A DNA stretch of 64,000 bases, taken from Patescibacteria group bacterium. GTDB lineage: Bacteria; Patescibacteriota; Microgenomatia; UBA8517. The DNA lies in NCBI GenBank assembly GCA_036381415.1, contig DASVCV010000012.1, positions 10,717 through 74,716 on the forward strand. Reading direction: 5' to 3'. The notes under the pieces were generated by a model. That model was not told the DNA's origin. It did no database searches and worked only from the letters and a program-made list of their open reading frames with translations. Shown here one piece after another: positions 2,474-26,134 of the stretch. The position numbers and the translations under genes are program-made. The first letter of the stretch is position 1, and every line of letters starts with the position of its first letter.

Positions 2474-4886
2474 CCTTTAATCTCCAAAACCCAATACCGC
2501 ACATCTTTGCCAACACCAACCCATGCTTAAAGGCTTTCATCTTAGATTTTCCAGCGACTCTCTTTTTGTAATGAACAGGCACTTCAATTATATCCAAGTT
2601 GTTTTCAGCAGCTCCAAACAATAAATCAAAGTCTCCCCATGATTTTCCACTCATTTTAACCTTCTTGTAATCACTTTTATATAAAGCTTTAGTACCACAA
2701 AGCGTATCTGTTATTCTTACACCTAAAAGCCAGGAAAATATCCAGCTAAAAACTAAATTTCCCACCAAATTAAGCTGTCTCATGGCTTGATCTTCCATTG
2801 GATAAATTAATCGGGTGCCATTTACAAAAGTTCCCAGCCCTTTTTCAAAAATATTAAAAAATCTCGGCAATTCCTCCGGAGGAACAGCCATATCTGCATC
2901 TAAAATCATTACGACATCCCCTTTAGAAGCATTCATCCCTTCCTTAACAGCCCAACCCTTACCTCTATTAGGTTTATACGAAACAAGCCTCAAGTTCTTA
3001 TACTTTCTCATCAATTGTTTAACTTCTCTTGCAGTCTTGTCCTTCGATCCATCGTCTACCACAATTATCTCAGTTCCCTTACCCATCTTAGGCACTCTAC
3101 TAATACAGTTTTTAATATTTTCCTCTTCATTAAAACAAGGAATAACAACTGAACAGCTAAGTTTTTTAGTAACTGCCAAATCCGCCTTGCTTGCAACAAT
3201 ATACTGCTCCAAGCAAAAACGATTTAGGAATGGGGTTTGCTGAACAACTGAATTAACCCATCTGCTGACAAAAGGTATGTGGACAGGAAATATTAATTTA
3301 TATCCACACTCTTCAACTTGATAACCTGATATATTTACAATATTTTTTAAATCCTGGAGTCTTAACCAATTCTTCTCACCTTCTGCCCTTTTTAAATTAA
3401 ACTTTTCTAAAACGGAAAAAACTTGTATCCATTTTGGGTTCAAGGAAGTAAGGATTATTTTTGATTTTGTTGTTGTATTATCTTTTAGTTTTTCAAGAAC
3501 AGTTTGGATATCTTCTAAATGATCAACTGAGTTCGGCATTATAACATAGTCAAAGCTACCTCCTATATTTATATTTTCGGGCTTGGAATTAATAAATTTA
3601 ATCTGTGAGTATCTTCTTTTTGCAGAAAGCATAATGTTCTCATCAGTATCAACACTTACAGCTTTCTTTGGATAAAGACTCGCTAGAATATCTCCCAACC
3701 CATACCCTACTTGCAATACATTTGCCCCTTCAGGAATAGACGATTTAAAAATCTGCCGCAATGAGTTATGGAAGTACCAGTTCTTTTCTCTCCAATAATC
3801 AAGACTCTTACTCATTGAAAAAGAAACAGCTTCTCTAGAAAACGCACTGTTTTTAACAATATCTTCAATCGTTGTATCAATATCATATTCATACTTCCAT
3901 TTAGGATAATGACCCTTAAACTTTTCTACAGAAGAAACATACCAAATATGGTCTCCAGTTCTATTTTCGTCTTTATATTCTGTAATTGCCTTTTTACCAC
4001 TGATATCTTCAATCTTTTTAATCGCCTCAATCATAGAAATGTTGGCAAATCTTGAACCTCCCATGTTATAAACCTCACCAATTCTTGGTTTTTGGTAAAA
4101 ATTATAAAAAGCATTTAGTAGATCATGGGAGTGGATATTATCTCTTACTTGCTTTCCTTTATACCCATATATAGTGTACTTACGTTCAGTTAAAATACAC
4201 TTAACTAAATAAGATAAAAATCCATGTTGCTCTGTACCTGCATGCCCAGATCCGGTAAGACACCCTCCCCTAAAAACACCAGTTGCTAAGTTAAAATATC
4301 TTCCATATTCCTGAACCATAAGATCCGCTGCTGCTTTTGAAACACCAAATAAAGAATGAGTGCTATTATCAATAGACATTGTTTCATCAATACCGTTTTT
4401 ATATTGATGTTTTGGACTAATCTCGTATCTAGTTTTTAATTCAATTAAGGGAAGTCTGTTAGGAGTATCTCCATAAACTTTATTTGTTGATGTATATATA
4501 AATACTCCATCAGAAGCATGACGCTTAAAACATTCAAGCAAATTTAATGTTCCATTGGCATTTACTCCAAAGTCAGTAAGAGGCTCCTTCGCAGCCCAGT
4601 CATGCGATGGCTGCGCAGCAGTGTGAATAATTAAATCAAACTTATGTTTTTCAAATATTTCTTCTAACTTATCAAAATCCCTTATATCATTCGAATAGTG
4701 AGAATAGTTTTTATATATCCTAAGAAGCTTTTTTACGTTTGGCTCAGTACTTCCTTCACTACCAAAGTAGTATTCCCTCATATTGTTGTCTATTCCAACT
4801 ACTTTGTACCCTAGATTAGAAAAAAAATGTACCGACTCAGATCCTATTAGTCCGCCTGATCCGGTAACTAAAATTGTCTTTGCCAT
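2400..4886 (-). CDS. Trifunctional fusion: NAD-dependent sugar epimerase (possibly CDP-paratose 2-epimerase-like), class I SAM methyltransferase, and GT2 glycosyltransferase (Dpm1-like)
   Basis: N-terminus [13 protein letters not shown] Rossmann fold plus [11 protein letters not shown] and HIWYVSS. Middle region [17 protein letters not shown] motif. C-terminus [37 protein letters not shown]. 828 aa. Confidence 0.75.
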
Positions 4887-4932
4887 TTCGGGTCCATATT
4901 ATATACTTACCAATTAGAAGTCAACTGTAAAT
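4887..4932. promoter_or_regulatory. Short divergent intergenic region (probable bidirectional promoter)
   Basis: 46 bp of AT-rich sequence between the divergently oriented 2400-4886 (-) and 4933-5946 (+) genes; it is the only place transcription of both could start. Confidence 0.4.
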
Positions 4933-5946
4933 ATGTCAAAAAAATATAAAATTATTGTTACTGGATCAACAGGTTTTGTAGGAAGAAGATTAATAAAACT
5001 TCTAGTTAAAAAATATAACAGCAAAGATATTCTTTGTCTAATCTGGGACCGAAATAGCAATCTTGAAAAATCAGGAAGAAAAATTCTCAAAGACCTAAAA
5101 CTCAACACAAAAAAAATTGATTTAGTAACAGGGCAGGGACTTAAAAACCTTCCCAAATCTCCAAAGCTCATTATTCATCTCGCAGCCAACACAGATACAA
5201 ATGAAAAGGATCACAGAGTAAACGACATAGGAGTTAAAAATCTACTAGATGCTTTTAGCCCCATAGCACCAGACACACATATTATCCACATTAGTACCAT
5301 GGTAGCAATGAGTGGAAGAAAAAATTGTTCTAAACCTTTCAGTGAATCAAACCCTCTTTCTCCAAACAATGAATATACTAGAACAAAAGCAAATGGAGAA
5401 AAAATCATACTGGAAAGACAAAAAAAAGAAAACTTCAGGCTAACGATTTTAAGACCAAACACTATTTATGGTAGCGGTATGAGACCAGATAGTCTTTTTG
5501 ATTTTGTTAAAAAACTTATCCTTAAAAAGTCACTACTTGCTAGACTTAATTGGCCAGGACTTTCAAGTCTTATCTGTGTTGATGATGTAGCTAAAGCAAT
5601 ACTTCTAGCTGTAAATAACCCCCCAAAACCTGGTAAGAACAATATTTTCTTCTTGCATGGAGAAAACATAACTCTTGCTGAAATAAGTCGCCAGCTTCAT
5701 CAAAAGCTAAACACTCCCTATAAAGTGATAGTAATGCCAAAATTATTTTGGAGCATGGCTTCTTTAGAAAGATATTTCATACCAATACTAGAAAAGGTAA
5801 CAAACCCAAAAACTTTCAACCTCGCCTGGAGGGCTTCACTAATAGTTGAAAATGTAATCTATTGTAATTCAACCAAAATGAAAAAAACATTTCCTACCTG
5901 GTCACCTAGAAAATTAAGTGAGGAAATAAAAAGGATAACTATTTAA
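4933..5946 (+). CDS. NAD-dependent epimerase/dehydratase family protein
   Basis: IIVTGSTGFVGRRL Rossmann motif; 337 aa; specificity not determinable. Confidence 0.7.
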   Translation: MSKKYKIIVTGSTGFVGRRLIKLLVKKYNSKDILCLIWDRNSNLEKSGRKILKDLKLNTKKIDLVTGQGLKNLPKSPKLIIHLAANTDTNEKDHRVNDIGVKNLLDAFSPIAPDTHIIHISTMVAMSGRKNCSKPFSESNPLSPNNEYTRTKANGEKIILERQKKENFRLTILRPNTIYGSGMRPDSLFDFVKKLILKKSLLARLNWPGLSSLICVDDVAKAILLAVNNPPKPGKNNIFFLHGENITLAEISRQLHQKLNTPYKVIVMPKLFWSMASLERYFIPILEKVTNPKTFNLAWRASLIVENVIYCNSTKMKKTFPTWSPRKLSEEIKRITI

Positions 5947-5948
5947 GC

Positions 5949-6947
5949 CTACTTGAAGTATTTTTCTTTTACCTGTTCCTCTATCCACTTATATGTCTCC
6001 CCCAAACCTTCCTCTAGAGATATCTTTGGCTCCCATTTAAGAACCTTCTTCAAACGAGTATTATCAGAATTTCTTCCTCTTACTCCTTGTGGTCCTTCAA
6101 TATGTTTAATTTTAATTTTCACTCCTGCAATATTTGCAACCAATTTAGCTAGGTCATTTATACTTATTAACCTATCTTGTCCTAAATTAAGTGGTTTATC
6201 ATAATCAGATCTCATCAGCTTGAAAATTCCTTCAGTGCAATCATCAATATAACAAAAAGATCTTGTCTGTTTTCCATCTCCCCATATTTCAATCTCAGGA
6301 TTACCGCTTAATTTTGCAAAAGCAACTTTTCTACACATAGCAGCAGGAGCTTTTTCTCTCCCACCCTCCCATGTCCCATGAGGACCAAAAATATTATGAA
6401 ATCTCACAATCCTAGTTTCAATTCCAAAATCCTGCTTATAATGTGTACACAACCTCTCCATCACAAGTTTTTCCCATCCATATGCATCTTGTGGAAAAGC
6501 TGGATAAGCATCATCTTCTTTTAGAGGAACAACCTTTGCTTTAGTTTGTTTAAATTCAGGGTACACACAAGCCGAAGACGTGTAGAAATACCTCTTAGCC
6601 CCATTTACTCTTGCTGCTTCAAGAGTATGGGTATTAATTAAAGAATTATTGCGAAGAATAATAGAATGATTTGATGAGATAAATCCCATCCCACCCATAT
6701 CAGCTGCCAAACCAAAAACCTCCTCAATTCCTCTCGTTGCCTGCAAGCAATTATCCCATCTTCTTAAGTCTAAAATTTCAAATTCATCAGCATCACTTTC
6801 TTTATACTCAGGATACTTAATATCTACTCCTCTAACCCAATATCCTTTTCCTTTTAAGTAAGTCACCAAATGGTGTCCAATAAATCCACCTGCTCCAGTT
6901 ACTAAAACTCTTTTTCTATTGTTCTCTGCTTTTTTCTTTTTTGGCAT
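5949..6947 (-). CDS. GDP-mannose 3,5-epimerase (GME)-like NDP-sugar epimerase
   Basis: Long collinear matches to plant GME as I recall it: LAADMGGMGFISSNHS, SSACVYPEFKQ, RFHNIFGPHGTWEGGREKAPAAMCRK, WGDGKQTRSF, GPQGVRGRNSDN. Confidence 0.75.
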   Translation of the reverse strand: MPKKKKAENNRKRVLVTGAGGFIGHHLVTYLKGKGYWVRGVDIKYPEYKESDADEFEILDLRRWDNCLQATRGIEEVFGLAADMGGMGFISSNHSIILRNNSLINTHTLEAARVNGAKRYFYTSSACVYPEFKQTKAKVVPLKEDDAYPAFPQDAYGWEKLVMERLCTHYKQDFGIETRIVRFHNIFGPHGTWEGGREKAPAAMCRKVAFAKLSGNPEIEIWGDGKQTRSFCYIDDCTEGIFKLMRSDYDKPLNLGQDRLISINDLAKLVANIAGVKIKIKHIEGPQGVRGRNSDNTRLKKVLKWEPKISLEEGLGETYKWIEEQVKEKYFK

Positions 6948-17192: not shown

Positions 17193-18669
17193 ATTTAAAT
17201 TTCTTCCAGGTAGCTGCAACCAGCACAACTGCCAAAACGCTCACCCAATTTCCAACAGTTCTGACAGGTGTATCTGAAAAAACCGCCCCGTCTGCAGGAA
17301 TCAAACCATTTTTATCAGGTTGGTAATTCCAACCTGGAAAATAGTTTATATACTTTCCATCAGAAATCTTATCCGGTAGTTTATGGCCAAAGTTTGGCCA
17401 ATAATCATTAATTGATGCAAACCTTGATTCTGTCCAAAAAGCCCCGCTCTCCAAATCACTATCTGTAACACTCTTCCATATATCTGGTCTGAAAAAATTG
17501 TAGTTAAGAGCTATTGCAATTACCACAACGACAACAGCCATCCATACTCCAAATTTCCCTAAGTATTTTACAATCAGCCCTGAGGCAAGTGCGAAAGAAA
17601 AAACAGCAACACTCAAAAATCTCCATGGGAACTGAATATATTTCATAAACATTAAGTTGTTCCAAATAAATGTTGATTTATTATGAGTCAAGAAAAGTGC
17701 AAAAACTCCTATTAAAACTAAGGCCACAAAAATCTTTACATCCTTAGTAAATTTTCTCCTTAAGAGGACAATTAAACCAACAAGAAAAGGTAGAACCCAC
17801 TGTATCTGTCCAACTGATAAGCTAAGCCCATCATCAGTTCCCCATACAGATCCTCCATAACCCCAAAATCTGGAAACAAAAAGCTGCCCAATCGTTACAA
17901 AATTGGCTCTCCAATCAAAATATCCGCTTGTTGTAGAACCGATATCTACAAATTTTGATTCAAAAATAACCGGCAAAATATAAAACGCAGAAATTACAAA
18001 AGAAAAAAGTCCCGCAATTGCAAGGTATACAAATGGTTTTACATTTTTATATGTTAATAGCCTAAAGATTGTCCATCCTATTAAAAAGGGTAAAAATAAA
18101 ACAACTGACAAACTATGATTTAAGAGTAGAAGAGCAAAGAATAGACTAAACAGGACTAGATACGTCTTCTTCTTTGTAGACAAATAGTTTTCTATTTCTA
18201 AAATTATCAATGGAAAGAAAACAAAACTCATGCTCTCAGCCAGATCTCCCCTTACCCAGACATCAACTGCCCGGTATGGAGCATACAGATAAATAGCAGA
18301 TGACACTATCGCCGCCCAATCACTTTTCCAAATCTTTTTGGCCAGTAAAAACATTGCAAAAGCTGACATTACAAAGGATAAGGTAAAAGCAATTTTTAAA
18401 GAGTCTATTTTGCTAAAACCAACTAAATGAAATATTTCTCCAACTGCAAATGACACCTGTCCGTAAAAATTAAAAAGAGGCTCTCCATAACCAGCCCCCA
18501 CATCCTGCGCCCATCTGCATGGAATCTGTAAAGCTCTAAAGCACTTGTCTAGCTCAACCAAACGGATGTAGGGAAAATCCTGCATTGAGTAAATGCCAAA
18601 CTGGAGCATTCTCCAAAAAGCAGGGACAGATATAGCTAAAACAAGTAGAATTAAAAGTTTCTTTTTCAC
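17173..18669 (-). CDS. Polytopic membrane protein, putative GT-C (resembles the 'PTPS-related'/COG5617-type family)
   Basis: N-terminal motif LQIPCRWAQDVGAGYGEPLFNFY is shared with the N-terminal module of 46697-49711; about 12 TM helices; GTG start overlapping the upstream stop. Confidence 0.5.
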   Translation of the reverse strand: MKKKLLILLVLAISVPAFWRMLQFGIYSMQDFPYIRLVELDKCFRALQIPCRWAQDVGAGYGEPLFNFYGQVSFAVGEIFHLVGFSKIDSLKIAFTLSFVMSAFAMFLLAKKIWKSDWAAIVSSAIYLYAPYRAVDVWVRGDLAESMSFVFFPLIILEIENYLSTKKKTYLVLFSLFFALLLLNHSLSVVLFLPFLIGWTIFRLLTYKNVKPFVYLAIAGLFSFVISAFYILPVIFESKFVDIGSTTSGYFDWRANFVTIGQLFVSRFWGYGGSVWGTDDGLSLSVGQIQWVLPFLVGLIVLLRRKFTKDVKIFVALVLIGVFALFLTHNKSTFIWNNLMFMKYIQFPWRFLSVAVFSFALASGLIVKYLGKFGVWMAVVVVVIAIALNYNFFRPDIWKSVTDSDLESGAFWTESRFASINDYWPNFGHKLPDKISDGKYINYFPGWNYQPDKNGLIPADGAVFSDTPVRTVGNWVSVLAVVLVAATWKKFKYEENKK

Positions 18670-20291
18670 TTTGTTGATACAATATAATACGCCGGCGTCA
18701 GATTAGGATAATTCACTACAAAATCAATTTTTGCACTTGTAGGAAATTCAGATGGCTTCCCAACTAAGATAATATTTTTCAGCTTGCTGTCCACATTATA
18801 ATTAATATCTCGAAAAATATACTTTCCTATATTGTAGCTTCCCTGCTGGTCCACCCAACCATTAACTAATTCCCAATTCCTGCTTGCGCTCTGATACTCT
18901 CTAGGGTCTATTTTTTTATAAAAAGCTAAATAAATTTGAGGCTCTGAAACTGACTTTGAAATAATAACTTCCTTCTTTCCACCTTCTTCTTTAGATATAA
19001 AATCCACCACTTCTTTCGTTCCATATATCATACTAGGAGCATAAGAAACCCTCTGAGCATACACATACTTCTCAAAATTAAAAGCAAACGAAAGAAAAAC
19101 AACAATTACACTAGCAAACACAATTGCCTGCTTATAAAATCTAGGAAACTTAAGAACATATCTTCTATACAAATAGACTAACCCAAATGCCAATAAAATT
19201 TGCAGTGCAGGCATCATAAAAGCTACTCTGTTTGCAGCAAAACCAGGCCCTGTTGTTAAACTTGCAGGTATTGGACTTATTAATACCCAAAAAATAAATA
19301 GCCCTGCATTTTTAATTTGCCCACGGATTAATCCAACAATCAGTCCCACCAAAGATACAATGTCAAACAAGTACAATACCCCCACTCCTGGAACCATCCC
19401 ATAAGTTCCCTCATTTGGACCATTTGTAAAAAGAAACTGAGGAGAAAAGTAACTTAGGTAGTTTTTTGTAAAAGTTGTTGCAAGAGTAATAAGCTTATTA
19501 TTAAATGTTCTTGCCACTATATTTGCCTCTCCAGCCAAAATTGCCTGATACCGGTCCTGAGCAGACCATCCAGAAACCAAAGAAAAAATAGAAGATGAGG
19601 CAATCCTTGAGCTTCCAATTATATAAAAATAAACCGCTGAAGCTAAAAATAAAAACACTACCACACAAGCAAATAGAGTGTATTTTTCAATTTTTATCTC
19701 TTTTCTATAATTAAATATTAAGTATCCAACAATTAATGGAGTAAGCAATCTTGCCGTGTGATATGAAAACATATTAAGTCCAAAAACTAATGCACTCACA
19801 ACCAACAGCTTTGGCCTTTTAATACCTTCTATAAATAGAAGTATCCCCAGTGGTAAAAAAAATGTAGTTAGATTAGCTTCAAATGCCCCTCTTGAAAGCA
19901 TGATATGCCAAGGTGAAATTGCAACTAAGAATGAGGCAAGTAAAGCAGTTTTGTCTGTACTTAGCTTCTTAACTAGAAAATAGACAGCTACTAAAGCTAA
20001 ACTGCCAAGTACTGCATTAGGAAGTCTTGTAGCAGTTTCATTAAGTCCAAAAACTGCAATAAAAGGTATATCTAGATAGCTGTATAAAGGAAGCTTAGAA
20101 TCTCCAAATGATCTTAATATTAACGGAAAACTCACTCCCCACTGATCTTTTCCCGTTTTTAAAATTGAATAGGCATCATAACCAAACGAAGCTTCATCAG
20201 GAGTAAACCCAGCAGGTACACTATTTAATCCTATAACTCTAAGTAAGAATCCTAAAGATACAATTAATACTAAAATCCACTTTCGTGCCAC
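18666..20291 (-). CDS. PMT/GT39-like GT-C membrane glycosyltransferase (paralog A4)
   Basis: TPDEASFGYDAYSILKTGKDQWG..LRSFGDSKLPLYSY; apparent GTG start. Confidence 0.7.
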   Translation of the reverse strand: MARKWILVLIVSLGFLLRVIGLNSVPAGFTPDEASFGYDAYSILKTGKDQWGVSFPLILRSFGDSKLPLYSYLDIPFIAVFGLNETATRLPNAVLGSLALVAVYFLVKKLSTDKTALLASFLVAISPWHIMLSRGAFEANLTTFFLPLGILLFIEGIKRPKLLVVSALVFGLNMFSYHTARLLTPLIVGYLIFNYRKEIKIEKYTLFACVVVFLFLASAVYFYIIGSSRIASSSIFSLVSGWSAQDRYQAILAGEANIVARTFNNKLITLATTFTKNYLSYFSPQFLFTNGPNEGTYGMVPGVGVLYLFDIVSLVGLIVGLIRGQIKNAGLFIFWVLISPIPASLTTGPGFAANRVAFMMPALQILLAFGLVYLYRRYVLKFPRFYKQAIVFASVIVVFLSFAFNFEKYVYAQRVSYAPSMIYGTKEVVDFISKEEGGKKEVIISKSVSEPQIYLAFYKKIDPREYQSASRNWELVNGWVDQQGSYNIGKYIFRDINYNVDSKLKNIILVGKPSEFPTSAKIDFVVNYPNLTPAYYIVSTK

Positions 20292-21592
20292 AAATATATT
20301 ATACTTATCTTGTGTTCATAACTCCACCGGTTGAATTACAAGAAATACAACTCCTTAATCTATTCCATCTAGCTCTCACTCCTCTTGCCTTAAGGCTAAT
20401 AGGAATTATCTTTCGTGTATTAGGAAGTCTTCTTTTTAGTCTAGTTGCCTTTTATTTTGTAAAACCTAATAAACATAAAAACCTATTTCTTGCAGCAACT
20501 GGATTAATGTTTTTTCTATCACCCTGGGAAAGTCTTATTTCAACATTTTATCTTGTTCAGAGCATATTAATTTTCTTGCTTTTAGTTGTCCTTAAGTTTA
20601 AAAAAAGAATTCTATTAATCCCGCTTCTTTTAATTTCGATTTTCTTTTTATACAAAACATACGCTCCAACATATCTATTTACAAACAAATTATCTTCTTC
20701 AAACCTCTTAATAGAAATAAATGACAGACAAAAAGCTGATTATTTAATAGAGGGAAGAAAATTTGTAATCCCTCGTCCAATTAGGGGAGTTATTTATAAT
20801 AAACAGTTTCTAGCAGGTAACAAAATTCTAAACCAATTCATTTCCTTTTTTGATTTTGAACATCTTGTTTCTCCTCTTGATTCATATGAGTTAATAAGAT
20901 TAAGTGGGATTTCCCCAAAAGGAAACCTTCCTCTTTTTTATCTCTGGGATATTCCACTTGTTATTTATGGAGTGTATCTTCTGACTAAAGAGAATAAGAA
21001 CAATAAGAAGTATGTAATCTTTTTGTTTTTCATTTCACTTATCCCTTATATGATATTTGAGAAAAAACTTCTTCCCCAAACTGCATTTCTAACTTTAATT
21101 CCAATTCTCTTAATAGAACCCTTAGCCATTTACAAAATAATAAAACTAAAAAACAAAATTCCCCTTCTTTTAGTTTCTCTACTTTTTGCACTTAGCATCT
21201 TTAGCTACTACACAACTTTTTACTTCTCTCCACAAACCTACCAAAAACCAGAATCCTACCTGTATGAAGAAATCTCCAAATGGCTGTATAACAATTACGA
21301 CCCTAGTAAAACATATATTATCACTAACAAATTTGGTCCAACAGACAAGATGGTTTCATTCTATCTTCAAAAAACTTACAGCAATGTAAATTTTGAAGAG
21401 TTTGATCTATCAGAAAAAATTCCTCAAAAAAACACTTATTATGTTGGACTTGAAGGAGAATTTGTAGGACACGGCAAAAACCTGGAACAAAGAACACTCC
21501 CCGAGCATCTAAATATTGTTGATAAAATAACTGGACAGGAAGAACCAGTCTTTGAATATGGAAAGGAAATATGGATAGGATTATACAAATAA
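20285..21592 (+). CDS. N-terminally truncated PMT-like paralog (lacks TM1 and the DE loop); possible pseudogene or accessory subunit
   Basis: Aligns with the family from TM2 onward (LFLAATGLMFFLSPWES vs ALLGAFLLAINSWH; LFTNKLSSSN vs FLFFEGD). The ORF begins with GTG at the strand-switch point; the first ATG is at about 20503. Confidence 0.45.
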   Translation: MPQIYYTYLVFITPPVELQEIQLLNLFHLALTPLALRLIGIIFRVLGSLLFSLVAFYFVKPNKHKNLFLAATGLMFFLSPWESLISTFYLVQSILIFLLLVVLKFKKRILLIPLLLISIFFLYKTYAPTYLFTNKLSSSNLLIEINDRQKADYLIEGRKFVIPRPIRGVIYNKQFLAGNKILNQFISFFDFEHLVSPLDSYELIRLSGISPKGNLPLFYLWDIPLVIYGVYLLTKENKNNKKYVIFLFFISLIPYMIFEKKLLPQTAFLTLIPILLIEPLAIYKIIKLKNKIPLLLVSLLFALSIFSYYTTFYFSPQTYQKPESYLYEEISKWLYNNYDPSKTYIITNKFGPTDKMVSFYLQKTYSNVNFEEFDLSEKIPQKNTYYVGLEGEFVGHGKNLEQRTLPEHLNIVDKITGQEEPVFEYGKEIWIGLYK

Positions 21593-23127
21593 CTAATAAG
21601 TACGGATTAATTCTTATTTTGCTGTTGGCGTTCTGTCTTAGAGTAGCCTGGATAAGTAAGTCCCCTCCATCCCTTAATTGGGATGAAGCATCTTTTGGAT
21701 ATAATGCCTACTCAATTCTTAAAACTGGTAAGGATGAATTTGGAGTTAAACTCCCCATATTTCTTAGGTCCTTTGACGACTACAAACCAGCCCTTTATTC
21801 ATACCTTACAATTCCCTTCATATATCTATTGGGGCTAAATGAAGCTTCAGTCAGACTGGTTTCCGTTTTTTCAGGCACTTTCTCAGTGATATTTATATAT
21901 CTATTAGCAAAAGAGCTCTTTAAAAACAAATACATTGGGCTTCTTTCAGCTCTATCTATAGCAATTGAACCCTGGGCCATCCACTTTTCAAGAGCCGCCT
22001 TTGAAGCAAACCTTGCCCTCACATTAGTTTTAGGTGGTATCTACTTTTTACTAAAATCAAAACTAAAAGATAACTACGTAGTATTAGGAACCCTACTTCT
22101 TTCTTTATCTCTATATGCATACACCGCAAGCCGTATACTCATAATCCCCATTCTTTTAGTTTTTCTTGCCATTTATGGAAAAAATCTATTTAAAATCAGA
22201 AAAACTTTATATTTAATAATTATTTTTAACTTAATTCTAGTTCTTCCAATAATAATAACTAACATTGTCCACCCAGAAACCTTGTTTAGGTTATCCTCAA
22301 CATTTTTAATTTCAAGTTCCACCCCGGCAAGATTTCTTTCCTACTTCTCACCAATAAATTTATTTGTAAGAGGTTCTTCAGAGCCAACCCAACATATTCC
22401 AAACTTCGGAATGTTTTTTAGTTTTGAATTTTTCTTCTGGGTAATAGGAATCTATTTTCTCTTAAAAAAGTACACAAAAGAAAAAATTTTAATCTTTCTA
22501 ATTCTTGTAGCTCCAATTCCAGCTGCAATAACATGGAATTGGTTTTATCCTGCCCGAGTTCTACCTTTGTTTTCGCTTTTTTCAATTCTAATAGGATTAG
22601 GCTCATACCAGACAATAATTTATCTTGCCACAAAACCAAAAATTATTTTTGCTTTTTCAATTCTTGCTATTGCATTCCTTACTCTGTACAACCTTGCCAA
22701 TCTGGTAACCACACTCCGTTATCTACTTCCATACGAGGATAGAGGAAACTGGCAATATGGAATGAGAGAAATAGTCCAAGAAATTGCAAAGAATGAATCT
22801 AACTACAACACAATTGTTTTCGAAACAAGAAACGCCCAGCCCTTTATCTTTGTACTTTTCTATTCCAAGTATCCGCCTGATATGTATCAAAAACAGATAG
22901 AAAACACCGCCAAACTCCAAATCCCAAGGAAAAGCTTTGATTTTGGAAAATACATCTTTAGAGATGTTTACTGGCCAAATGACAAGAAAGACCAAAGAAC
23001 TCTTCTTGTTGCTCCAGATTCATCACTGCCACTAGATAAGGTAAAATCAAACTCAAATCTAAACCTCATTAAAGAAGTTAATGATTTTGAAGGAAACCTT
23101 CTGGCAAGAATAGTAGGACTTAGATAA
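21571..23127 (+). CDS. PMT/GT39-like GT-C membrane glycosyltransferase (paralog A5)
   Basis: NWDEASFGYNAYSILKTGKDEFG..LRSFDDYKPALYSY; 518 aa. Confidence 0.7.
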   Translation: MDRIIQITNKYGLILILLLAFCLRVAWISKSPPSLNWDEASFGYNAYSILKTGKDEFGVKLPIFLRSFDDYKPALYSYLTIPFIYLLGLNEASVRLVSVFSGTFSVIFIYLLAKELFKNKYIGLLSALSIAIEPWAIHFSRAAFEANLALTLVLGGIYFLLKSKLKDNYVVLGTLLLSLSLYAYTASRILIIPILLVFLAIYGKNLFKIRKTLYLIIIFNLILVLPIIITNIVHPETLFRLSSTFLISSSTPARFLSYFSPINLFVRGSSEPTQHIPNFGMFFSFEFFFWVIGIYFLLKKYTKEKILIFLILVAPIPAAITWNWFYPARVLPLFSLFSILIGLGSYQTIIYLATKPKIIFAFSILAIAFLTLYNLANLVTTLRYLLPYEDRGNWQYGMREIVQEIAKNESNYNTIVFETRNAQPFIFVLFYSKYPPDMYQKQIENTAKLQIPRKSFDFGKYIFRDVYWPNDKKDQRTLLVAPDSSLPLDKVKSNSNLNLIKEVNDFEGNLLARIVGLR

Positions 23128-23135
23128 TCCCATTA

Positions 23136-24401
23136 TTAATTTATTAAAGAGTTAATTTTCTTTGTAAGATGTATAAGCTTTATAAATACAATAAGGTTAA
23201 TAATCGAAAGCGCTGTCTTTACACTATCTATCTTTAAAAGGCTCTCCAGGAAGGAAAAAGGAGGTGCCCAAAACAAATGATATAGATTTAAAAGACTTAA
23301 AATAGACAAAATAATATAAGAAATTAAAATTTCTGGGAAAAATCCAAGAGAAATAGTAGCCAGCGGAAAAAAGGGATAAAGATACCTCTCATGAATTCTT
23401 GTAAAAAACAAAAACGTAGCCAAAGCAGTCAAACTTAAAGCATAGAAAATATACTTTTCTTCAAATTTATGTTTCTTTAGCCATAATATTAGTGTAAGTA
23501 CTATCCCGATAACCAAAAGATACCCCCAAATATGTGCTGACAAGCCAAAATAAATGTAAGAATCAAGAACTTTTCCAGGATCAACTATCCACCAGAAATT
23601 AAAGGCATTGGCAGTTAAATACCCAATCTCCCCTGGAAATATTCTTTGATTATATAAATTAAATAGCCAAACAGGTAAATCAAAAGCTGGGTGGAACCAA
23701 ATTGATATTCCAACTACGCATATTGCACATGCTGCAAATGCCCTCACCCACTCCTTTACTTCATATTTCTGCCAAATCATTACCACAAAAAGAATTGGCA
23801 GAAAGATAGACAAAGACCCTTTAAACAGTAAGCTCAAAACTATAAATATCATGGATAAAACTAGTTTCCTCTTCATTAGAAAAAGAATACTCACTAGTCC
23901 TAATAAATTTACAATTGGATCTGTTTGCCCCCAAACAGCAGAGTTATATAAAATAACAGGATTAAATAGCCACAAAGCACTCAAAATAAACCCCCTTCTT
24001 TCCATCTTCTTTTCTTTAAAGTACTTATAAATAAGCCATCCAATCCCAAGATCAGCTAAAACTGACGGAAGCTTAACCAACAAGGTCATTCCTTGTCTTT
24101 CCCAATACCAAATAAACTTTGATGGAAAAAATGAAATGCGATTATTTAGGAACCAGGAACTATTATCAACAAAACTCCAAATATTATTAGTAAAAGCAAA
24201 TAGAAGTATAGTTAAAGGCGGCTGGTTTGGTGCTGAATTAGGCCAATCAGTCCCTTCATAAAAATTAGCTAGTCCTCTCTCACTAGCTAACTTTCCCCAA
24301 GAAATATTGTTATTTAAATCCCCGTGGAATGCAATTGGGATTAAAAGGAGTCTTAATATAAAAGCAGCTAGTATTAATATAATAAATTTTTTGCTCTTCA
24401 T
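23136..24401 (-). CDS. Polytopic membrane protein, putative GT-C mannosyltransferase-like (DUF2029/GT87-like)
   Basis: KLPSVLADLGIGWLIYK and NPVILYNSAVWGQTD motifs are shared with the C-terminal module of 46697-49711. Confidence 0.45.
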   Translation of the reverse strand: MKSKKFIILILAAFILRLLLIPIAFHGDLNNNISWGKLASERGLANFYEGTDWPNSAPNQPPLTILLFAFTNNIWSFVDNSSWFLNNRISFFPSKFIWYWERQGMTLLVKLPSVLADLGIGWLIYKYFKEKKMERRGFILSALWLFNPVILYNSAVWGQTDPIVNLLGLVSILFLMKRKLVLSMIFIVLSLLFKGSLSIFLPILFVVMIWQKYEVKEWVRAFAACAICVVGISIWFHPAFDLPVWLFNLYNQRIFPGEIGYLTANAFNFWWIVDPGKVLDSYIYFGLSAHIWGYLLVIGIVLTLILWLKKHKFEEKYIFYALSLTALATFLFFTRIHERYLYPFFPLATISLGFFPEILISYIILSILSLLNLYHLFWAPPFSFLESLLKIDSVKTALSIINLIVFIKLIHLTKKINSLIN

Positions 24402-26134
24402 TTATTACAATATACACTTTTGTTGGGTGTGCTTGCACACTTTAATCCCGGATTAGTTTTGTAACCAATAAATATTGGCCGATGAATAGGATCATCAATT
24501 TCAAAAACCTTGGTTAAAAAATGCTCCTTAGCCTGTTTAGAAGATATAGATAGCTCATCCCCTACCAAAATTTGATTTTTGTATATATCTTTTTCCCAAA
24601 TTATCCCTCGAGTTTCAACATTTTCAAATTGATGGTATGGATCAAACTTAGTATTACTATAATAATTATATTTTATCGTTTGATCTATGTTTTTTTGATA
24701 AATTAAAGGATCAATCTTCATAAAAAATGCCAATTCAATATATGGTATTTTTATTCTTTGATCTTCAACAATGTAGTGCGTCTCAGAATCCTTTCTAATT
24801 AATTGGGACAACTCCTCAAAGCCAAAGCTAAAATCTCTAGCTTTCTCATTAATAAACAAAACAAAATAAGATCTCCAGAAAAATGACAAGGAAATAAACA
24901 AAAATAAAATAACAAATAAACTCTTTACTAATAATTTAGGTTTAAATTTGTTTAGAAACACCATAACTTCATTTATTCCAAACGCAATAATAAGGCTTAT
25001 TGGAAAAACAACAGGCATTGCTCTGTGGGTTGACAATGGATCCTTAGTTAATGCCGCAGGGATAGGTGAAAGAAGTAAAACTAATAATATAAATTTTGAA
25101 TAATCCTCTTTTCTCTTTTTCCAAAGATAAACTACCCCAATCAAATAAGGAACAACCATCCAAACATAAAAAGGTGTCATTTCTGGCATATCCAAATCAT
25201 TTGATAAAAACAAACTTCTTGGAGAAAAATAGTTTACATATTGAGAAAGAAACTCTCGTAAAAAAGATAATACAAAAGCAACTAATTTGGGAAAAATATT
25301 AATTTTTTCTGCCTGTGACAAAATTGCAGAAGAAGACATTAAATCAGACTTAGGAAAAAAAGCAGGTGTAAAAACTATCATTAAGTTAGGTATCTGAGTC
25401 AAAAACAATATTGCAAAAGAAATAATAATATTTTTATAATTTTCTTTTTTAAGTATCTTTTTCCTAAAAATAACAAAAAAGAAAAGAATTAAAGGAGGAA
25501 TAATAAATCTTTCGGTATAGGCAGCATAAAGAGAAAATGAAAGAAAAACTGCAGAAGGAATTAAGTAGATGCTCTTTTTAAGAGAAAGCCAAAGAAATAA
25601 AGAACCTGCACAAAAAAGAAAGAACGCTAGCGACACTTCATATCCAACCCTGCTTTGGAATACAAGCCAAGGAGTTACTGCAAAAAACAAACTTCCAACT
25701 AGTGAAATTTTAAGGTTCTTAAGGAAAAAATAAAATACAAAAATTGACAAAAACCCGCTTAATGATGCAACAATTCTTACTGCATATGGATTTAACCCCC
25801 ATATTTTTATAGGAAGTGTAGTTAAGTAAATATATAAAGGCGCATTATAAGAGCCATACATCCTAAAAACTATCGGCAAGAACTTTCCATATTCATCCTT
25901 GCCAGTTTGGAGAATACTGTAAGCATTATACCCATGAAGTGCTTCATCCACATAAAACCCTTTCGGAACAGATTCTAGCTTAACAAAAAAGATTATAAAT
26001 CCAATAACACCTAGAAGTGTTAATATCAAAACTGATACCCAATTTCTTTTAATTTTAAAGTGTTGCATAAATAATAGTTTGAACAAAGACCAATAAATAG
26101 CAAACAATAAATAACCCAACCACGATCCTTTCAT
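24398..26134 (-). CDS. PMT/GT39-like GT-C membrane glycosyltransferase (paralog A6)
   Basis: YVDEALHGYNAYSILQTGKDEYG..FRMYGSYNAPLYIY; 578 aa. Confidence 0.7.
   Translation of the reverse strand: MKGSWLGYLLFAIYWSLFKLLFMQHFKIKRNWVSVLILTLLGVIGFIIFFVKLESVPKGFYVDEALHGYNAYSILQTGKDEYGKFLPIVFRMYGSYNAPLYIYLTTLPIKIWGLNPYAVRIVASLSGFLSIFVFYFFLKNLKISLVGSLFFAVTPWLVFQSRVGYEVSLAFFLFCAGSLFLWLSLKKSIYLIPSAVFLSFSLYAAYTERFIIPPLILFFFVIFRKKILKKENYKNIIISFAILFLTQIPNLMIVFTPAFFPKSDLMSSSAILSQAEKINIFPKLVAFVLSFLREFLSQYVNYFSPRSLFLSNDLDMPEMTPFYVWMVVPYLIGVVYLWKKRKEDYSKFILLVLLLSPIPAALTKDPLSTHRAMPVVFPISLIIAFGINEVMVFLNKFKPKLLVKSLFVILFLFISLSFFWRSYFVLFINEKARDFSFGFEELSQLIRKDSETHYIVEDQRIKIPYIELAFFMKIDPLIYQKNIDQTIKYNYYSNTKFDPYHQFENVETRGIIWEKDIYKNQILVGDELSISSKQAKEHFLTKVFEIDDPIHRPIFIGYKTNPGLKCASTPNKSVYCNK

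Follow-up and report, generated by a model that had tools for sequence, protein, structure and literature searches.

What is a glycosyltransferase-like gene that lacks its beginning: the wreck of an enzyme, or a working part of something else? The question is raised by a 64,000-nucleotide stretch of a Patescibacteria genome (assembly GCA_036381415.1, contig DASVCV010000012.1; hereafter the window), in which two overlapping open reading frames, ORF1 and ORF2, lie on the plus strand inside a long array of minus-strand genes. ORF2 encodes a canonical GT-C glycosyltransferase of the ArnT/PMT_2 type, and ORF1 a shorter paralog that has no first transmembrane helix (TM1). A preliminary description of this DNA proposed that ORF1 had been clipped by an inversion whose breakpoint fell within the gene, and that what was left behind is either a decaying pseudogene or a catalytically dead accessory subunit. 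We favour, with moderate confidence, a different history: ORF1 would be an intact member of a reduced GT-C subfamily, and would serve ORF2 as a non-catalytic or non-canonical partner in a heteromeric complex.

The two genes travel together. Starting from orthologs of ORF1 or of ORF2, we recovered nine other loci, which with the window make ten. All ten hold exactly one intact ORF1-like gene, placed directly upstream of, and overlapping, an ORF2-like gene for a canonical GT-C protein; the overlap is 22 nt in the window and 16–25 nt elsewhere. Moreover, identity to the window copy co-varies across the loci, at 23–46% for the ORF1-like and 36–58% for the ORF2-like proteins, the ORF1-like proteins evolving faster than their partners. 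Two paralogous GT-C proteins are thus both co-encoded, being adjacent in ten of ten loci, and co-inherited. For P0143, a distant short form, a look-up returned no contig, and the ten loci do not extend to the most distant members of the subfamily. The close orthologs of ORF1 (seven proteins of 404–463 aa, 41–49% identity) share 55 invariant columns and contain no disruptions. Synonymous sites are saturated at such protein identities, and it is from this conservation that we judge ORF1 to be intact and to evolve under purifying selection.

That the pair lies on the plus strand is no scar left by inversion but a trait of long standing, conserved in this type of cluster. Seven of the nine other loci have the same arrangement, with the plus-strand pair diverging from a minus-strand PMT_2 gene across a gap of 10–27 bp, and in several of them the pair is followed, as in the window, by a conserved minus-strand gene of 420 aa. 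One locus (L004) is syntenic with the window gene for gene. Its ORF1 slot is filled, likewise in plus orientation, by a 575-aa long form that is 38% identical over ORF1 residues 59–434 and possesses TM1, a 'TIDEAQ' loop (TIDEAQRAYFSFSIF) and two extra helices. Because this long form has the same orientation, the orientation predates the reduction of ORF1.

Base composition points the same way. Every 2-kb bin from position 1 to 64000 has a negative plus-strand GC skew (−0.08 to −0.38), and GC skew at third codon positions (GC3 skew) has the same sign in plus- and minus-strand genes, so that the skew tracks the replication strand and not the coding strand; ORF1 and ORF2 would consequently be head-on with replication. 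On the plus strand the GC3 skew is −0.31 for ORF1 and −0.37 for ORF2, against −0.17 to −0.56 for the 20 flanking minus-strand genes. The absence of a flip contradicts a recent inversion and indicates a block that is fully equilibrated to the replication strand. The traces that a breakpoint might have left are missing as well. The block has no flanking inverted repeats, only arms of paralog homology (19870–19922 versus 21961–22013) and short AT-rich chance pairs, and tblastn with the N-termini of long-form and canonical proteins found no N-terminal remnant, only the N-termini of intact paralogs.

A local inversion that broke a full-length PMT-like gene, clipped its N-terminus and left a decaying pseudogene would account for the sole plus-strand block in a long minus-strand run, for the absence of TM1 and most of loop 1 (the first outer loop), for the lack of a Pfam match and for the faster evolution of ORF1-like proteins. 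It would not account for a reading frame that is intact in all ten loci, for the shared divergent orientation in seven of nine, for a plus-strand long form, for an unflipped GC3 skew or for 55 invariant columns. Nor would it explain why the TM1-less N-terminus is common to three proteins that are just 44–45% identical. The short form is conserved as such at orthologous loci, an outcome that the preliminary description had itself named as telling against its proposal and in favour of a bona fide short subunit. We consider inversion and decay refuted by the synteny. The second half of that proposal fares better: a catalytically dead accessory subunit agrees with the evidence and is the starting point of the explanation that we favour, in which ORF1 would be an inactive partner.

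ORF1 is a true, if very divergent, homolog of the PMT_2/ArnT-like GT-C paralogs, as judged by profile comparison. Pairwise BLASTP against the paralogs of the window is marginal (E 0.39 to 2e-5), so that profile methods were needed. A hidden Markov model (HMM) of the window paralogs matches ORF1 at E 3e-15 (48 bits), and hhalign matches the alignment of ORF1 orthologs to seven window paralogs (97.6%, E 4.5e-12, 369 columns) as far as ORF1 residue 419, within the C-terminal domain. ORF1 has no Pfam match at E≤0.01 and no NCBIfam match, and the ortholog alignment, run as a profile against the sequences of the PDB, returned nothing relevant.

The register of this homology was read from MAFFT alignments (70 and 69 sequences), in which the comparison set comprised 39–60 canonical relatives. 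Here and below, residues of ORF1 follow the numbering of its 426-aa form and canonical residues that of ORF2. R28 of ORF1 falls on R95, invariant at the start of TM2, and P71-W72 fall on P134-W135. These columns, together with the profile comparison against the paralogs, bear out the earlier claim that ORF1 matches the family from TM2 onward. The hhalign register of the N-terminus, which sets ORF1 residue 10 opposite ORF2 residue 116, conflicts with BLASTP and MAFFT. Since almost every member of either group has the PW motif and the Arg, we dropped it and took the MAFFT register. In the conflicting alignment (20285–20400 versus 21916–22000) 'LALTPLALRL' of ORF1 is paired with the paralog peptide 'AIEPWAIHFSR', one helical hairpin out of register; successive helices are alike enough to mislead profile alignment at the N-terminus.

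ORF1 had been described as lacking both TM1 and the loop that carries the catalytic Asp-Glu (DE) motif, and the description is half right. TM1 is absent: no hydrophobic segment precedes the PP..E sequence, and an in-frame TAA lies upstream at 20240–20242. The DE loop, however, is partly kept. The remnant TPPVELQE retains the PP and the Glu, with Gln in the Asp column, and some 40–50 residues of loop 1 are deleted, so that E11 and R28 are separated by 16 residues in ORF1 as against 55 in ORF2. The retained Glu is at least 90% conserved in two alignments (A4 and A5).

The AlphaFold2 (AF2) model of ORF1 (pLDDT 85.9, pTM 0.85) comprises roughly eight helices in the membrane, one large outer loop and an alpha/beta domain at the C-terminus, with a lone short helix at residues 9–18 in the loop-1 region. 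The SPW kink in its first transmembrane (TM) block is a family-wide feature. The five best PDB matches of the model are all GT-C enzymes (ALG12, two entries of PglB, ArnT and DPY19), albeit with weak Foldseek E-values (0.04–0.4); ArnT has the highest TM-score among the fold matches (0.44). As modelled, ORF1 has a coherent topology. Two residues of the N-terminal tail are acidic and none is basic, and the loop after the first helix, KPNKHK, is basic. Loss of TM1 leaves an acidic tail that could sit outside the membrane, and the topology of the remaining protein would thereby be preserved.

Could the missing helix be hidden rather than lost, by a misplaced start codon, a frameshift or a fault in the assembly? 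Start sites in the ORF1-like subfamily do seem to be mis-called often. At L010 the database call begins at 4592 and gives 476 aa, whereas translation from GTG 4430 (4430–6022, plus strand) yields 530 aa that include TM1 and a 'PPLSVENAE' loop. That GTG lies 20 bp from the start of the divergent neighbour. The maximal frame of ORF1, too, runs nine codons past the annotated start. These nine codons form no transmembrane helix, however, and the TAA at 20240–20242, which lies inside the coding region of the neighbour, blocks any further extension. No other upstream frame encodes TM1 or a DE-like peptide, so that a search for an upstream start restoring TM1 and the DE loop, as the preliminary description had suggested, comes back empty. 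The first residue of two orthologs (P0002 and P0132) coincides with that of the 426-aa form of ORF1, and at L003 an in-frame TAA stands seven codons before the ortholog start, at the position of a CAA codon in the window. We judge an artefact to be very improbable.

The true start of ORF1 is probably GTG 20312, as in the NCBI annotation ('hypothetical protein', 426 aa), and not 20285. The start context AAATATATTATACTTAyCTT-GTG-TTC is common to ORF1 and its ortholog at L003, and the 20 bp upstream of 20312 (AAATATATTATACTTATCTT) are nearly identical to those before the L003 GTG. The preliminary description had ORF1 begin with GTG exactly where the divergent neighbour starts, but 20285 is merely the first possible start of the frame; with GTG 20312 the two divergent genes begin about 20 bp apart and do not overlap. 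The TYL codons at 20303–20311 weakly match the end of TM1 in orthologs (E 3e-4) and are a possible vestige. ORF1 and its divergent neighbour, whose N-terminus is kept among orthologous neighbours, may be expressed as leaderless mRNAs from back-to-back promoters: TATACT at 20300–20305 stands 6 nt before GTG 20312, as it does before the start codons at L003, L001 and L007, and a minus-strand TATAAT at 20303–20298 stands 6 nt before GTG 20291. A sigma-70 consensus scan of 20100–20500 gave no full promoter and no −35/−10 pair, so that this suggestion is drawn solely from the conserved −10-like boxes.

What, then, is left of the chemistry? Canonical relatives conserve D38, E39, G43, Y44, D55, P62, Y78, R95, R141, Y184, R240, F265, R329 and G344 at 97–100%. 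Of these, E39 and R95 persist in the ORF1-like subfamily, in its long forms too, and so does the PW motif. D38 is variable (Gln in ORF1; Arg, Ser or Trp in close orthologs), R141 is replaced by Thr, and R329 by Thr or Ser. The part of loop 1 with G43, Y44, D55, P62 and Y78 is deleted in short forms, and R240 is either deleted or Lys in ORF1, depending on the alignment. The DE motif is the hallmark of GT-C enzymes, its first Asp being present in every GT-C glycosyltransferase of a published homology search (PMC7801869, PMC8698208). Exchange of this Asp for Glu or Asn kills function in ArnT and in S. coelicolor Pmt (PMC8698208), and R138 of Pmt1 is essential (PMC8698208; PMC7801869); according to a passage in PMC8698208 that cites the work, DE-motif mutants of M. 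tuberculosis Pmt retain reduced activity. ORF1 lacks what an active enzyme of the ArnT/PMT type should have, namely TM1 followed by an intact DE motif, a complete loop 1 and the set of Arg residues presumed to bind the phosphate of the lipid carrier. Because these defining features fail, and the Pfam model with them, we do not file ORF1 as an active PMT_2/ArnT enzyme.

ORF1 is one of many such proteins. An exhaustive profile search found 212 cluster representatives at E≤1e-3 (116 at E≤1e-10). We aligned 121 near-full-length members and scored 112 for architecture: 62 are short, 44 long and six mixed. In the long form loop 1 has 33–55 residues and a two-helix hairpin follows the PW motif; in the short form, to which ORF1 belongs, loop 1 has 8–22 residues and there is no hairpin. 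An acidic residue occupies at least one of the two DE columns in 99 of the 112, and 107 carry xNK in the large outer loop. In twelve members the Glu column is preceded by fewer than 15 residues, suggesting TM1-less forms, a count blurred by mis-called starts; a 461-aa form without TM1 and DE occurs in a different genomic context (L012). The traceable sources are all Patescibacteria or unclassified metagenome. The subfamily matches no Pfam or NCBIfam model, and of 13 members, long or short, none matches PMT_2 (PF13231) or PMT (PF02366) at E≤1. Comparison of the architectures indicates that the subfamily descends from a full-length GT-C protein: long forms of 500–585 aa persist, one of them in the syntenic slot. 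The short architecture has lost most of loop 1 and the two-helix hairpin, and the clade of the window copy, P0002 and P0132 has lost TM1 too. The subfamily is uncharacterised, whereas its parents, the GT-C/PMT_2 proteins, are of a kind already known.

The partner gene has kept what ORF1 lacks. ORF2 has TM1 and a DE loop and matches Pfam PMT_2 at 3.5e-10; its AF2 model (pLDDT 93.3) has ArnT 5f15 as the top Foldseek match (E 2.3e-9). Its TM7–TM8 loop, however, is shortened and without the HNK motif. In all eight full-length ORF2-like partners the loop from R240 to Y258 (YFSP) measures only 18–41 aa, and seven of the eight lack (H/N/Y)NK; in most other paralogs it measures 44–63 aa and carries the motif. 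The same loop is the most conserved region of the ORF1-like proteins. By the helix counts of both models, the outer loop of ORF1 is the TM7–TM8-equivalent loop. That the ORF2-like proteins carry a shortened or degenerate version of this very loop supports ORF1 as the partner of ORF2. The two genes are also entwined at the level of nucleotides. The Shine-Dalgarno-like sequence and start codon of ORF2 (GGAAAGGAAAT-ATG) lie inside the conserved EYGKEIW codons of ORF1 (21560–21592), and part of the conservation of that motif at the protein level may therefore reflect overlapping translation signals.

In the complex that we propose, ORF2 would supply the DE active site, and ORF1 would contribute its conserved outer loop and C-terminal domain for substrate binding; the inactivity of ORF1, its contact with ORF2 and the role of the loop are all predictions of the proposal. 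Several points weigh against it. A GT-C active site is normally built by a single protomer. The acidic residue at the DE site in most members and the many invariant polar residues would fit an altered active site too. R141 and R329 are called phosphate-binding by alignment and literature analogy (compare Pmt1 R138 and PglB R375). Canonical sequences dominate the AF2 alignment of ORF1 and bias its model toward a GT-C fold, and the Foldseek E-values of that model are weak. The ORF2-like partner at L010 keeps 'ENK', and a paralog class such as that of 24398–26134 is without HNK though it has no ORF1-like neighbour, so that the loop complementarity is imperfect.

The same residues can be read in another way. 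ORF1-like proteins might be enzymes with a remodelled site, made up of the retained Glu or Asp of loop 1 and the EINxRQK, YNK and FFDFE loop, each acting alone before or after its ORF2-like neighbour. Adjacency would then reflect order in a shared glycan pathway and not a complex. The frequency of the acidic residue (99/112) and of xNK (107/112), the dense invariant polar residues of the outer loop and a topology that is coherent across all length forms would suit such enzymes, as would the residual activity of the M. tuberculosis Pmt mutants mentioned in PMC8698208. Yet the hallmark Asp is not conserved, ArnT and S. coelicolor Pmt lose their function once it is exchanged for Glu or Asn (PMC8698208), and R141 and R329, invariant in the 39–60 canonical relatives, are replaced throughout the subfamily. 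The loop-1 part with G43, Y44, D55, P62 and Y78 is deleted in short forms, and strict pairing with gene overlap at ten of ten loci is tighter than pathway order needs. We regard remodelled enzymes as the main rival to a partnership, though on balance an unlikely one. A bolder form of the partnership, which we offer tentatively and think rather improbable, is an obligate heterodimer that arose by complementary degeneration of two GT-C paralogs. ORF2 would have kept the DE loop and lost the TM7–TM8 outer loop with its HNK, and ORF1 would have lost the catalytic loop, and in the clade of the window TM1 too, and would have kept and sharpened the outer loop, now supplied in trans.

Features of the ORF1–ORF2 locus and its immediate neighbours (window coordinates).
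Feature	Position	Strand	Description
Divergent neighbour	18666..20291	-	Full-length PMT_2 paralog, 541 aa, GTG start at 20291; Pfam PMT_2 3.6e-15
ORF1, maximal ORF	20285-21592	+	435 aa
ORF1, upstream part of maximal ORF	20285..20311	+	Probably untranslated; overlaps the neighbour's start codon (20289-20291) and the 20-bp intergenic region
Divergent intergenic region	20292..20311	.	-10-like boxes, read from the sequence and compared across loci
ORF1, probable true extent	20312..21592	+	426 aa, GTG start, stop 21590-21592; reduced GT-C-like membrane protein
TPPVELQE	20321..20344	+	Remnant of the first outer loop start; Q10 = hallmark Asp column (D38->Q); E11 (20342-20344) = E39
Four TM helices, residues 24-117	20381..20662	+	TM2-TM4 plus one, with SPW kink; AF2 helices 24-50, 56-79, 81-95, 99-117
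Large outer loop, residues 118-212	20663..20947	+	EINxRQK, R..YNK, SFFDFE, SPxDSY, LSGxSPKGN; invariant or near-invariant columns (alignments A2, A4)
Second TM block, residues 213-328	20948..21295	+	Includes WD/EIPL and FEKK; AF2 helices and alignments A2, A4
C-terminal alpha/beta outer domain, residues 329-426	21296..21589	+	Homologous to the paralog C-terminal domain; AF2 strands 334-425
Shine-Dalgarno-like GGAAAGGAAA and ORF2 ATG	21560..21573	+	Embedded in the conserved EYGKEIW codons of ORF1
ORF2	21571-23127	+	518 aa, canonical ArnT/PMT_2-type GT-C glycosyltransferase
Convergent neighbour	23136..24401	-	421-aa polytopic membrane protein

The window is AT-rich (GC about 34%). Among ORFs of at least 150 aa a minus-strand run extends over 5949–56850, broken only by ORF1 and ORF2. 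The block 20285–23127 had rightly been singled out as holding the only long plus-strand ORFs, but the run that surrounds it is about 51 kb long and not 25 kb. Positions 2400–56850 are essentially one very large glycosylation cluster. It contains about 14 proteins that match PMT_2 or the window-paralog HMM, four YfhO/PTPS_related membrane proteins, at least 11 GT2 and four GT4 proteins, two Polysacc_synt flippases, sugar epimerases and methyltransferases; the GT2 genes often adjoin GT-C genes, and membrane GT-C-type genes number roughly 20 in the 64 kb.

The 421-aa gene that converges on ORF2 is found at the same position in five other loci (L004, L007, L009, L010 and L011), with 37–58% identity. 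Its product has no Pfam match and only a weak NCBIfam one, 'cell surface glycopolymer formation protein'. Its stop lies 8 bp from that of ORF2; elsewhere, wherever a locus shows the 3′ ends of both genes, they overlap by 8–50 bp. Kept beside this gene is 24398–26134 (minus strand), of a second class of divergent PMT_2 paralog (544–578 aa, with orthologs in L007 and L010) that has no Pfam match, matches the paralog HMM at E 4e-96 and lacks the HNK loop motif. One of the contigs that we compared, CAZOVJ010000001.1 (484,806 bp, with loci L004 and L008), is titled 'uncultured Gammaproteobacteria bacterium', yet the region compared is syntenic, gene for gene, with the window and with a Candidatus Woesebacteria genome (L009). 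Its synteny suggests that this taxonomic label is probably wrong.

Patescibacteria, also known as the Candidate Phyla Radiation (CPR), have tiny genomes and yet devote large clusters to surface glycosylation. A widespread subfamily of 212 representatives that is without the hallmark residues but strictly paired with a canonical enzyme in the loci examined suggests that pseudo-enzyme partners may diversify or control the specificity of glycosyltransferases, for which PMT heterodimers and PIG-U provide a eukaryotic parallel. Should complementary degeneration be the true history, no bacterial pseudo-GT-C subunit would have been described before ORF1, and an active or substrate site would be shared by a live and a dead glycosyltransferase paralog. 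Annotation stands to gain in any case: ORF1-like genes are now called 'hypothetical protein', often from the wrong start.

How does ORF1 compare with systems that are already understood? A literature search on Patescibacteria/CPR GT39 or PMT_2 proteins and on catalytically inactive GT-C heterodimers found nothing relevant. The ArnT/PMT_2 GT-C enzymes (PF13231; CAZy GT83/GT39-like; C. metallidurans ArnT, 5ezm and 5f15) share with ORF1 the core from TM2, the SPW kink, the Arg of TM2, an xNK/YFSP-type loop and the C-terminal outer domain. ORF1 differs from them: it has no TM1, carries Gln in place of the Asp, is missing the two-helix hairpin and the greater part of loop 1, has other residues at two positions of invariant Arg, and matches neither PMT_2 nor PMT of Pfam even at E≤1. 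PIG-U, a subunit of the glycosylphosphatidylinositol (GPI) transamidase (7wld chain U), is GT-C-like and non-catalytic and presumably binds a lipid-linked glycan. It is among the fold matches of ORF2; however, it is eukaryotic, its partner proteins are unrelated to it, and it has no specific sequence relation to ORF1.

Two further systems pair one GT-C protein with another. Mycobacterial EmbA and EmbB (7bvc, 7bvf), also among the fold matches of ORF2, are encoded by adjacent paralogous GT-C genes and form a heterodimer, but both subunits are catalytically competent, much larger than ORF1 and keep the DD/DE motif (for 7bvf, D281/D282 are listed; PMC7801869). PMTs are obligate dimers. The MIR domains of Pmt1 and Pmt2 are inserts between TM7 and TM8, and each acts in trans on its partner (PMC12705809); the DUF1736 loop of TMTC proteins, at the same position, is considered critical for catalysis and donor binding (PMC7801869). 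Pmt1–Pmt2 and POMT1–POMT2 (6p25) are paralogous GT-C pairs, and the luminal insert that in Pmt1–Pmt2 contacts the opposite subunit has by analogy the role we propose for the ORF1 loop. Both subunits of Pmt1–Pmt2 have an invariant DE motif and an active site, as ORF1 does not, and neither ORF1 nor ORF2 has a MIR domain. ORF1 differs from PMT heterodimers and from PIG-U alike in that it is a bacterial paralog, reduced in form, whose strict pairing is with a live one; by analogy it would work most like the non-identical halves of a PMT heterodimer, or like PIG-U.

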